Part shown: piece after piece, positions 3,247 to 14,126 of the stretch
How the letters are laid out: the number at the start of each line of letters is the position of its first letter
How positions within the stretch are numbered: position 1 is the first letter of the stretch
IMG/VR virus record: IMGVR_UViG_3300005512_000237
Location: 1-29,012 of that record
Strand: one strand, 5' to 3'
Length of the DNA stretch: 29,012 bases
DNA from: a virus
Taxonomy: Duplodnaviria > Caudoviricetes
Made by a program: the position numbers and the translations under genes
The notes under the pieces: generated by a model
Databases searched by the model: none
Seen by the model: the letters and a program-made list of their open reading frames with translations, nothing else
Told to the model about the DNA's origin: nothing

Positions 3247-3498
3247 ATGTATAATAAAAGAAAGAACTTTAAGAAAGAAGAAACACCACAAGGCATGACA
3301 GTTACAGTTCGTAACGGTGATGTAAATGGTGCAATTCGTGTCTTAAAAAAGAAACTTATCAAGGACGGTTTGTTTCAAGAAATACGAGAAAGATCTTTCT
3401 ACGAAAGTAGAGGAACAAAACGCAGAAAGGCAAAGGCCGCTGCAACTCGTAGATATAAACGAAAAATGCAAAAACGATTTGAAGAACTTGGTTACTAA
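3247..3498 (+). CDS. rpsU: phage-encoded 30S ribosomal protein bS21
   Basis: VTVRNGDVNGAIRVLKKK...GLFQEIRERSFYE...KRRKAKAAATRR matches the bS21 pattern; highly basic. Confidence 0.88.
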   Translation: MYNKRKNFKKEETPQGMTVTVRNGDVNGAIRVLKKKLIKDGLFQEIRERSFYESRGTKRRKAKAAATRRYKRKMQKRFEELGY

Positions 3499-4416: not shown

Positions 4417-4492
4417 GCTGGTTTAGCTCAGTTGGTAGAGCAGGGGTTTTGTAAACCTCAGGCCGGGAGTTCAAGTCTCTCAACCAGCACCA
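4417..4492 (+). tRNA. tRNA-Thr (TGT)
   Basis: GCTGGTT/AACCAGC acceptor, anticodon loop TTTGTAA, GTTCAA T-loop, CCA. Confidence 0.95.
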
Positions 4493-4493
4493 T

Positions 4494-4567
4494 GCGGGCA
4501 TCGTATAATGGTATTACCTCAGATTTCCAATCTGATGACAGGAGTTCGATTCTCCTTGCCCGCTCCA
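4494..4567 (+). tRNA. tRNA-Gly (TCC)
   Basis: GCGGGCA/TGCCCGC acceptor, TCAGA-TTTCCAA-TCTGA anticodon arm, CCA. Confidence 0.95.
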
Positions 4568-4574
4568 AAATCTA

Positions 4575-4603
4575 TTGACATTCATTCTGTTTTAGGATAA
4601 TAT
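4575..4603 (+). promoter_or_regulatory. sigma70-type promoter for rnh
   Basis: TTGACA 4575-4580, 17 nt, TAATAT 4598-4603. Confidence 0.7.
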
Positions 4604-4631
4604 ATAATACTATGAAAAAAGGTGATAAACT

Positions 4632-12945: not shown

Positions 12946-13273
12946 TGGATTTGCTCAAGATCTTTCACAGGAACTTCCAGAACAACAAAAACCACCACTA
13001 ACATATTGGGCATCAAAACCAATTCAATGTTCGACACCAGAAGAGATTGTTGAACTAATGAAAAAATATGGAGAAACACCAGCAATTGTTTTTGAGGGTT
13101 CTACTGCACTACCAAACGGAGTTCAATCTCCATCAAGATTTGTTGTTGCAATGAATCCAAAAACAGAAACATGGACATTGTTAGAATTTACAGGGCCAAC
13201 CCAAGCTTGTATTTTAGGTGCTGGAACTGGAAAAGTTTCATTGGGGGGAAAGAAAACTGAAATTGCTACTTGA
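12899..13273 (+). CDS. exported hypothetical protein
   Basis: start 12899 MKKLMMTVALLLLPLSGFA signal peptide; two Cys. Confidence 0.75.
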   Translation: MKKLMMTVALLLLPLSGFAQDLSQELPEQQKPPLTYWASKPIQCSTPEEIVELMKKYGETPAIVFEGSTALPNGVQSPSRFVVAMNPKTETWTLLEFTGPTQACILGAGTGKVSLGGKKTEIAT

Positions 13274-13300
13274 CATTCAAATGTCACTGTGGTATAAATA
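13270..13300 (+). promoter_or_regulatory. composite sigma70 / T4 late promoter with a palindrome over the -35
   Basis: TTGACA 13270-13275, 17 nt, TATAAATA 13293-13300; TGACATT-CA-AATGTCA 13271-13286. Confidence 0.75.
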
Positions 13301-13314
13301 AGAATAACCTACCA

Positions 13315-13363
13315 CGTTCATCCTCAGTAGAGGACGGAAGTATGCATAATGCAGAAGGAACGC
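13315..13363 (+). ncRNA. glnA-type (glutamine-I) riboswitch aptamer
   Basis: P1 CGTTC/GAACG, P2 TCCTC/GAGGA, conserved CGGAAGTA, P3 TGCA/TGCA, GAAG E-loop strand. Confidence 0.8.
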
Positions 13364-13388
13364 ACTCAACTGTAAAAAGGAGAGTGGT

Positions 13389-13478
13389 ATGGAACTTTGG
13401 CAGATGTGGACGTATCGAAGATTGATACAAGACCACAAACGCAATAAACTTCTTAAACTACTGTGGTTGCGAAGATAG
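13389..13478 (+). CDS. 29-aa basic Trp-rich peptide downstream of the riboswitch (not in ORF track)
   Basis: MELWQMWTYRRLIQDHKRNKLLKLLWLRR; strong SD AAGGAG. Confidence 0.65.
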   Translation: MELWQMWTYRRLIQDHKRNKLLKLLWLRR

Positions 13479-13562
13479 TTTATTGAAGGGTGATGCCTTA
13501 ATACATCCGTGTGGATCAACGGTTAGTCCACAACACACAACACAGACACAAAGGAGAAAATT

Positions 13563-13802
13563 ATGTCTAATAGTAAAAATCCGTTTGAACTACGGTTCGA
13601 CACATTGGCTCTCGCCAAAGATATGCTTGATCGTCAGTATGACACAGCACAAACACAAATGTTTGAAATGCTAGAACAAGCAAAAACTCAACAAAAAGAC
13701 CTCTTAGAAGTTTTTGAGAAGTATACACCAAAAATGTATACTCCAGAAGAAATTGCAAAGCAGGCTGAAGAACTTTATAAGTTCATCACTAAGAAAGACT
13801 AA
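13563..13802 (+). CDS. hypothetical protein
   Basis: 79 aa, SD AAGGAG; NPFELR...A.ELYKFI. Confidence 0.82.
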   Translation: MSNSKNPFELRFDTLALAKDMLDRQYDTAQTQMFEMLEQAKTQQKDLLEVFEKYTPKMYTPEEIAKQAEELYKFITKKD

Positions 13803-13841
13803 ATTGCAACACTCGTTTATTTGAGTGCTCTGCTTTATAAA

Positions 13842-13875
13842 GATAGAGGGTGGGGCGCCCTGCCCTCTATCACTT
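13842..13875 (+). terminator. GC-rich hairpin, possible terminator or RNA stabiliser
   Basis: GATAGAGGGTGGG / CCTGCCCTCTATC with two G-U pairs; only a short T tract follows. Confidence 0.5.
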
Positions 13876-13892
13876 TAACTAAAGGAAATATT

Positions 13893-14126
13893 ATGAATCT
13901 AGAAGAACTAGCTGTGATGACCCCAAAGAAGTTTGCTATAAAAATTGAAGAAATCGTATCTAAAGGTGGTATTACTTACATGGATGCAATCTTAGATTAT
14001 TGTGCAAAAAATCAAATGGAGCCTGATGCAATCGCTCCTCTCATCTCAAAACCTCTCAAAGAAAAATTAGAAGCAGATGCAAGAGAATTAAACTTCTTGC
14101 CTAGAGTAGCAACCTTACCAATCTAA
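13893..14126 (+). CDS. gp33: late transcription coactivator gp33
   Basis: F...IE.IV....YMDAILDYC...LISKPLKEKLEADARELNFL; directly upstream of gp59; start moved to 13893 after AAGGA. Confidence 0.88.
   Translation: MNLEELAVMTPKKFAIKIEEIVSKGGITYMDAILDYCAKNQMEPDAIAPLISKPLKEKLEADARELNFLPRVATLPI

Follow-up and report, generated by a model that had tools for sequence, protein, structure and literature searches.

The presence of a glutamine-I riboswitch in a bacteriophage raises the question of which gene the switch controls, in which direction it acts, and what its product would do in the host. The window (the whole stretch of DNA analysed here, 29,012 bases) is the complete record IMGVR_UViG_3300005512_000237, and it contains T4-type genes, a bS21 gene and four tRNAs. 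Its gp59 is 69% identical to that of Methylophilales phage Melnitz, compared with 44% for Synechococcus phages, the next among the matches listed, and its gene order is the same as in Melnitz, where the orthologous locus comprises an exonuclease, a promoter, the aptamer, gp33, gp59 and thyX. This is consistent with the earlier note on this DNA, which saw nothing pointing to a cyanobacterial host. The phage is best classed as a Melnitz-like T4-type myovirus, from gp59 and gene order rather than from a tree, and this implies no particular host. The best-matching sequencing runs are salt-marsh and marine metagenomes, of which 4 of the 20 listed contain at least half of the window's words, and the top one may be the sample from which the record derives. 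The features discussed below are as follows.

3247-3498: phage-encoded ribosomal protein bS21 (phrog_21469), flanked by tRNA genes.
13270-13300, plus strand: promoter-like site predicted from sequence (TTGACA at 13270-13275, a 17-nt spacer, TATAAA at 13293-13298).
13301-13314, plus strand: all that is left of a permuted tmRNA, namely the 3' strand of its last hairpin; some 390 nt are missing.
13313-13366, plus strand: glutamine-I (glnA) aptamer, RF01739.
13363-13386, plus strand: expression platform hairpin CACTC/GAGTG, covering the 3' part of the Shine-Dalgarno (SD) sequence AAGGAG (13377-13382).
13389-13478, plus strand: gene for a 29-aa basic peptide, net charge +6, recognised from family profile matches, selection and column conservation.
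13479-13493, plus strand: in-frame remnant FIEG and a stop after the TAG; this second stop ends the ORFs of relatives (L001, L010, L098, L174, L288).
13487-13532, plus strand: H-type pseudoknot (13487-13507) and GGUUA-loop hairpin (13510-13532).
13563-13802, plus strand: conserved 79-aa phage protein with its own SD, found at 53 viral loci.
13810-13871, plus strand: a pair of hairpins separating the 79-aa gene from gp33, one terminator-like (13810-13827) and one G+C-rich (13842-13871).
13893-14126, plus strand: gp33-like late-transcription coactivator (phrog_254, E 1.8e-21).

The aptamer core (13315-13362), the two arms of the hairpin (CACTC at 13363-13367, GAGTG at 13382-13386), the SD and the ORF all lie where the earlier note had put them. 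Its reading of the core as a glutamine-I aptamer is borne out by the Rfam covariance model RF01739, which aligns over its full length (model positions 1-53) with 60.1 bits and E 4.2e-11, against a gathering score of 35. The three-stem junction and the E-loop are kept, with P1 at 13315-13319/13358-13362, P2 at 13321-13334, the E-loop in the junction and P3 at 13343-13353. Residues C1, G22, G23, G54, C58, G59 and C60 correspond to positions 13315, 13336, 13337, 13357, 13361, 13362 and 13363. The residues beyond G22, G23 and C60 come from the wider list of ligand contacts of this aptamer. The numbering is that of the crystal construct printed in PMC5393176, and the roles of G22, G23 and C60 are those given in PMC11477058. 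The glutamine-II model (RF01704) was discarded, at 16.7 bits below its cut-off of 33. The aptamer fold is not the minimum-energy structure in unconstrained folding, and therefore only constrained folds were used. The locus belongs to RF01739 and is a predicted sensor of L-glutamine. Such cores are not rare in viruses: a pattern scan that returned 120 viral stretches estimates their number at about 1200.

Directly downstream of the aptamer lies the 29-aa ORF, which the earlier note proposed as the regulated product. We built a profile from 27 hand-picked members of the family, and among the distinct ORFs led by an aptamer it matches 62 of 126 viral and 7 of 78 cellular ones, counts which include the training sequences as well as loci enriched by the platform pattern and are not frequencies. 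Run against 1.84 billion representatives, the same profile returned 22 proteins, all short and all with the family pattern. The ORF also evolves as a protein: 68 sequences yielded 27 disjoint pairs, in which dN/dS amounts to 0.26 for the reading frame but to 1.29 and 1.55 for the shifted frames, and the substitutions per codon position are 121/79/182. The peptide is thus conserved behind homologous aptamers and under purifying selection, as the earlier proposal would have it. It belongs to an unnamed family, mostly basic helices of 27-38 aa, with net charges from +3 to +9; a cellular homologue is predicted as a single helix (pLDDT 92). Aromatic or hydrophobic residues make up most of the conserved positions (W4, W7, C8, L12, H16, L24, L25), with positions 4 and 7 aromatic in 47/47 members and position 16 mostly His or Tyr. 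Cys8 is present in 42/47 members, and the window peptide has Thr there.

Searches with the window peptide itself gave no match in PHROGs, no Pfam family at E<=0.05, nothing at 0.9 or above in the ESM Atlas, and no match to DUF4278 (PF14105), a family found in 10 of 64 aptamer-led viral peptides. In Melnitz (MZ577097.1), a homologous 32-aa plus-strand ORF follows the aptamer (L174, aptamer at 4440-4488, ORF at 4511-4609), where GenBank instead calls a 33-aa ORF on the minus strand. Contigs spanning 13301-13512 with 0-1 differences were found in 4/4 metatranscriptome runs, although these may derive from DNA, and neither strand nor level can be read from them. As a separate observation, viral glutamine-I aptamers (L054-L173, L430-L527) precede at least five other groups of short proteins: 63-65 aa with a GTSGY motif, about 50 aa ending in PRLQ-I, 45-49 aa ending in NP-YP, 31-38 aa of a TYRP/Q type, and a DUF4278 type. 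For several of these groups, counterparts from cells occur in Pelagibacteraceae, SAR86 and SAR116. At one locus (L528 1260-1475, G021), a 72-aa ORF consists of two tandem copies of the peptide, with a double aptamer upstream.

How the aptamer could act on this ORF was studied by surveying the loci L001-L294 together with the window, which gave 109 distinct aptamers with 150 nt of downstream sequence. An SD and an ATG-started ORF of at least 14 aa lie within 60 nt of the aptamer in 106 of them (a count made with no chance control), and in 105 of these 106 the ORF is no longer than 70 aa. A stem of at least 4 bp beginning exactly at the base after P1, i.e. at the equivalent of C60, is present in 73 of the 106 distinct viral aptamers, against a mean of 45.6 and a maximum of 54 in 1000 strand-swap controls; with Watson-Crick pairs only, the count is 61, against a mean of 24.6 and a maximum of 39, all observed counts being inflated by related sequences. 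The stem covaries (CACT/AGTG in 30 of the 106, CACC/GGTG in 26, CATC/GGTG in 7 and CATC/GATG in 4), and its 3' partner sits 3 nt ahead of the start codon in 54 of the 73 loci. An SD-covering expression platform, which the earlier note had offered as a candidate, is thus found as a covarying hairpin that is more frequent than strand swapping yields, and it is very probable that the switch governs the 29-aa ORF.

The direction of switching follows from where this hairpin begins. The G23-C60 pair has been described as a linchpin of the glutamine riboswitch (PMC11477058), and in Synechocystis gifB glutamine raises IF17 synthesis, for which melting of a C60 helix over the ribosome-binding site (RBS) was proposed (PMC6212724). 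By analogy with the cyanobacterial switch, bound glutamine would lock P1 and let G23 pair with C60, so that the SD hairpin would lose its first pair, the RBS would open and the peptide would be made. An ON switch is likely because the covarying RBS hairpin starts at the C60 equivalent, the base that is captured on ligand binding, and we consider this direction probable. When P1 and C60 are withdrawn from pairing, opening the RBS becomes cheaper in the models, the median over the 73 loci dropping from 10.2 to 5.9 kcal/mol, a fall that is partly there by construction; the platform hairpin of the window alone is predicted at -7.3 kcal/mol. The opposite arrangement, in which a P1 stabilised by glutamine has the SD hairpin stacked upon it and the gene is kept OFF, draws on the fact that P1 and the hairpin are compatible in secondary structure. 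It is nevertheless unlikely, considering that the C60 equivalent is itself the first base of the hairpin, that G59 could lengthen the hairpin at the expense of P1 in 55 of the 73 loci, and that the type 1 switch tested in PMC6212724 is an ON switch.

Upstream of the aptamer, the window differs from its relatives. In twelve close relatives and in Melnitz, a two-piece permuted tmRNA of about 390 nt (Rfam tmRNA), which had gone unmentioned in the earlier note, lies between the promoter and the aptamer and ends at the aptamer; in Melnitz, the GenBank tmRNA feature extends into the aptamer. In the window, the promoter is fused straight to the last 14 nt of the tmRNA, which are identical to the tmRNA 3' end in L003, L004, L006-L009 and L018. 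The promoter-like site, which also precedes the tmRNA in Melnitz and L007, has its TATAAA within a T4-late-type TATAAATA (13293-13300); a consensus promoter scan did not list it, since the second hexamer has no T at position 6. The tmRNA-less junction is either a rare deletion or an artefact. It was found in none of the viral and none of the metagenome stretches scanned, while the tmRNA-bearing junction occurs in 13 metagenome stretches, and no contig listed from 8 runs spans 13300/13301, the tmRNA sequence being a loose end there in six of them. If the deletion is real, the prediction is that the freed tmRNA strand pairs across the start codon, and the modelled opening cost would then only change from 7.9 to 7.7 kcal/mol in the window, compared with 11.4 to 8.6 kcal/mol in L004, so that the strand would nearly cancel the switch of the window. 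The family could therefore be functional while the copy in the window is crippled, or while its junction stems from assembly or processing, a reading that we regard as a minority one but by no means negligible. The missing junction and the extra helix speak for it; on the other hand, the scanned sets may leave out the records closest to this genome, and the cassette is intact, with aptamer and ORF identical to those of tmRNA-bearing relatives. It is also compatible with the other readings considered here.

The neighbouring genes offer other possible outputs. The earlier note placed the peptide just upstream of gp33, and this does not hold: they are separated by 414 nt that hold the pseudoknot-hairpin motif, the 79-aa gene and two hairpins (a terminator scan gave a single match, equal to the chance expectation with a mean of 1.0). 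In other phages the cassette follows unrelated genes, and the aptamer was not found at 40 of the 53 loci with the 79-aa gene, some of which are incomplete, so the connection to gp33 is one of position only. The 79-aa gene, which is present in the window and missing from Melnitz, has one isolate match (Roseobacter phage CRP-9), no match in PHROGs and only unnamed viral clusters in the ESM Atlas; it has a CA-rich leader and is frequently near a tmRNA or the pseudoknot motif. Of its 53 loci, 12 have both a tmRNA signature and the aptamer, 18 the tmRNA only, 1 the aptamer only and 22 neither, where the aptamer-only locus and many of the last class are incomplete. With the aptamer at 13 of its 53 loci, this gene is a neighbour that is not tied to the switch. 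Among 25 family loci inspected, several follow a major head gene from one of two unrelated families (phrog_138, phrog_267), and others come before a gene for Hsp20, a ligase or a phosphoesterase, according to a scan of 23 neighbours. In L012 and L013, the tmRNA and the downstream motif are present while aptamer and ORF are both absent. Because the neighbours vary while aptamer and ORF are gained or lost together, the two make up a single module that depends on neither tmRNA nor gp33, and they have spread as such.

This bears on whether the ORF is a cis-acting leader or a bystander, with the switch controlling the tmRNA, the 79-aa gene or gp33 instead. The aptamer does adjoin the tmRNA 3' end, and the stop of the ORF often overlaps the downstream pseudoknot in Melnitz-like phages. 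The aptamer is however downstream of the tmRNA, the tmRNA signature occurs without it at the 18 loci mentioned, and most family loci have neither tmRNA nor pseudoknot and differ in their downstream genes. Considering also that the protein sequence is under selection and that cellular copies end in terminators, this alternative is very improbable, and we retain the peptide as the likely output of the switch.

The pseudoknot-hairpin motif that overlaps the end of the cassette was found in about 350 viral stretches and has no Rfam match at E<=10. Seven pairs hold in 40 sequences among 78 distinct aligned copies, the outer pair being C-G in 28 and A-U in 12 (its 5' base was left free by the search pattern), and the hairpin stems are 5-8 bp long in 74 of the 78. 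The motif usually stands directly behind the stop codons of genes of various kinds, or behind a tmRNA, mostly without an aptamer. It is often ahead of gp33, its first half is duplicated in L199 and L201, and among L175-L294 it follows Hsp20-like and ~90-aa genes (labels given by eye); by eye, it also resembles the first pseudoknot of phage tmRNA. Readthrough of the stop driven by the pseudoknot was rejected, since it would add four residues only and the stop-to-motif distances are very variable. The motif is mostly independent of the riboswitch and is probably an element of transcript 3' ends rather than part of the switch.

The same type of switch also occurs in bacteria. A genome scan with a pattern biased towards the platform type of the window gave 104 loci, of which 80 titles were listed: 13 are cyanobacterial, and most of the others are SAR86, SAR116 and other marine proteobacteria, with two complete chromosomes among them, while a few loci may be binned phage contigs. 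The cellular switches precede several peptide families and some larger genes. All 7 cellular homologues of the window peptide come from one marine Burkholderiales family, where they lie behind tandem aptamers among cellular genes, and in 5 of the 7 our own test found a terminator-like hairpin and a U run after the ORF. Among other cellular switches (L313, L316, L346, L374), one precedes an 829-aa ORF in SAR86 and another a pair of genes of 468 and 319 aa. The 500+ aa ORF behind L374, in SAR116, is one that we take to be glutamate synthase. In a cyanobacterial genome (G006, L425-L429), one of five IF7-like genes (L363) lies behind a glutamine-I aptamer with a similar SD hairpin.

The distribution of GlnE, the adenylylation enzyme, was compared with that of the switch. 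Among 29 genomes of the Burkholderiales family, scored on the top 135 RNA candidates per genome, 8 have the switch (GlnE match in 0/8), 18 have GlnE without the switch and 3 have neither; the Fisher p of 4e-5 ignores kinship and is not relied on, and the pattern probably reflects one clade, a single event and incomplete genomes. Type I glutamine synthetase and PII are present in 3/3 genomes tested from this family, and PII in 5/5 cassette-bearing genomes tested. In the SAR86 order, no GlnE was found in 41 genomes and 22 have a switch over the cut-off, which precedes other peptide families or larger genes. In the SAR116 family, the 10 of 61 genomes with a switch all have a GlnE match, and their peptides are of another family; the matches are single-domain ORFs of about 500 aa that align best to the C-terminal half of two-domain GlnE (G004:C1:1905085-1905768). 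A general rule by which the switch occurs only where GlnE is missing is ruled out by SAR116. The literature search returned no paper on Pelagibacter glnE. The Melnitz host is said to have neither glnA nor a glutamine riboswitch (PMC9004378), and another OM43 strain expresses type I glutamine synthetase (PMC5120137).

We propose that, once glutamine has opened the RBS, the peptide would bind and dampen the host glutamine synthetase, as a functional analogue and not a homologue of IF7/IF17. In streamlined marine bacteria it would replace adenylylation by GlnE; phages would place it after highly expressed genes (tmRNA, major capsid) and would benefit in that no ATP is spent on glutamine synthesis when glutamine is plentiful. 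This proposal as a whole is tentative and may well fail in one of its steps. The target in particular is our best guess, one with a reasonable chance of being right but a better one of being wrong. It is favoured because switch and GlnE are mutually exclusive in the Burkholderiales family, and it fits with peptides that are basic like IF7, which works via basic residues (PMC6316151), as well as with the absence of GlnE from the SAR86 order. Against it count the lack of any profile similarity to IF7 or match to DUF4278, the retention of GlnE in SAR116, the reported lack of glnA in the Melnitz host and the missing Cys8 in the window. Co-folding of the G002 homologue (35 aa, 47-row alignment) with two chains of its own glutamine synthetase gave no answer, with a score of 0.00 in 2/2 runs made without folded controls, and it speaks neither for nor against this target. 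Homology to IF7 was rejected by hhalign of the 27 family members against 28 IF7-type proteins (probability 0.1%, E 0.75). A shared R28 register that had been seen by eye failed to hold and is attributed to chance: the IF7 alignment keeps R8, R21 and R28, while the peptide family has R/K at position 28 in 72% and no basic conservation at 8 or 21.

The same glutamine-ON switch could serve a peptide that binds another nitrogen-control protein, such as PII/GlnK, the ammonium transporter, NtrB/C or glutamate synthase. PII occurs in every cassette-bearing genome tested, SAR116 has a GlnE-like gene alongside its switch-peptide cassette, similarity to IF7 is missing, and the conserved aromatic and hydrophobic positions are unlike the arginine-based binding of IF7. 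The cyanobacterial protein PirA reportedly binds PII; PirA-like peptides however contain DUF4278, for which the window peptide gave no match, and the GlnE exclusion in Burkholderiales favours glutamine synthetase, so we regard this alternative as doubtful, if worth keeping in mind. An effector outside nitrogen assimilation, acting for instance on translation, the membrane or lysis timing to signal host richness, would suit the position behind tmRNA or capsid genes in unrelated phages and a Melnitz host reportedly lacking the switch, and the authors of PMC9004378 themselves speculate on lysis timing. It appears rather unlikely, considering that the homologues are stand-alone chromosomal genes in bacteria that need no lysis timer, and that cellular glutamine-I switches also precede the IF7-like gene and the presumed glutamate synthase. 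Returning to glutamine synthetase as the target, a broader scenario can be formulated in which streamlined marine heterotrophs without GlnE evolved or acquired glutamine synthetase inhibitors under riboswitch control that form a second family, not homologous to IF7/IF17, and in which the ~170-nt cassette was taken up repeatedly by unrelated phages, so as to set host nitrogen assimilation by glutamine level during infection; this is distinctly speculative. It would be a candidate answer to how glutamine synthetase is tuned post-translationally in GlnE-less marine bacteria and, if true, would make the peptide a metabolite-gated auxiliary regulatory peptide below the size reach of most gene callers. 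With the aptamer core estimated to occur in about 1200 viral stretches, phages may frequently carry metabolite-gated peptides, a type of cargo that would so far have escaped notice.

The riboswitch in Melnitz-like phages has already been published: glutamine riboswitches were described in Melnitz, in the Pelagibacter phage Mosig, in a Prochlorococcus phage and in 15 related contigs (PMP-MAVGs), and control was assigned to ssrA (tmRNA), with speculation on lysis (PMC9004378). What is new is the peptide output, no downstream peptide being named in the main-text parts of that paper considered; likewise, no title or abstract opening in the literature searched, which was mainly non-subscription, mentions the peptide family or the second RNA motif, although Rfam-type supplements may list such loci. 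The switch-associated tmRNA of Melnitz is missing from the window, and the real output of the switch in Melnitz-type phages is likely the conserved unannotated peptide rather than tmRNA or gp33. The closest parallel is the type 1 switch of Synechocystis gifB/IF17, which has an aptamer of the same family, a C60-led helix over the RBS and a small basic protein downstream (PMC6212724), while the window belongs to a non-cyanobacterial phage with a 29-aa product similar to neither IF7 nor DUF4278. The same paper found type 1 switches only in cyanobacterial genomes, whereas here SAR86, SAR116 and marine Burkholderiales have them too (PMC12379486 briefly notes RF01739 in SAR86), so that glutamine-I switches with small-protein outputs range well past the cyanobacteria. 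The peptides resemble IF7/IF17 in being small and basic, in a synthesis that would occur under nitrogen-rich conditions, and in their occurrence in lineages without adenylylation control, which is partly shown here (PMC6316151); they differ in being about half as long and without detectable homology, with an aromatic/Cys/His pattern in place of the three invariant arginines of the IF proteins. The downstream-peptide/glutamine-II riboswitch has peptides that are mostly of the DUF4278 type and cyanobacterial, unlike that of the window, but it likewise joins a glutamine aptamer to a short uncharacterised ORF (17-100 aa) in marine DNA (PMC2864571).
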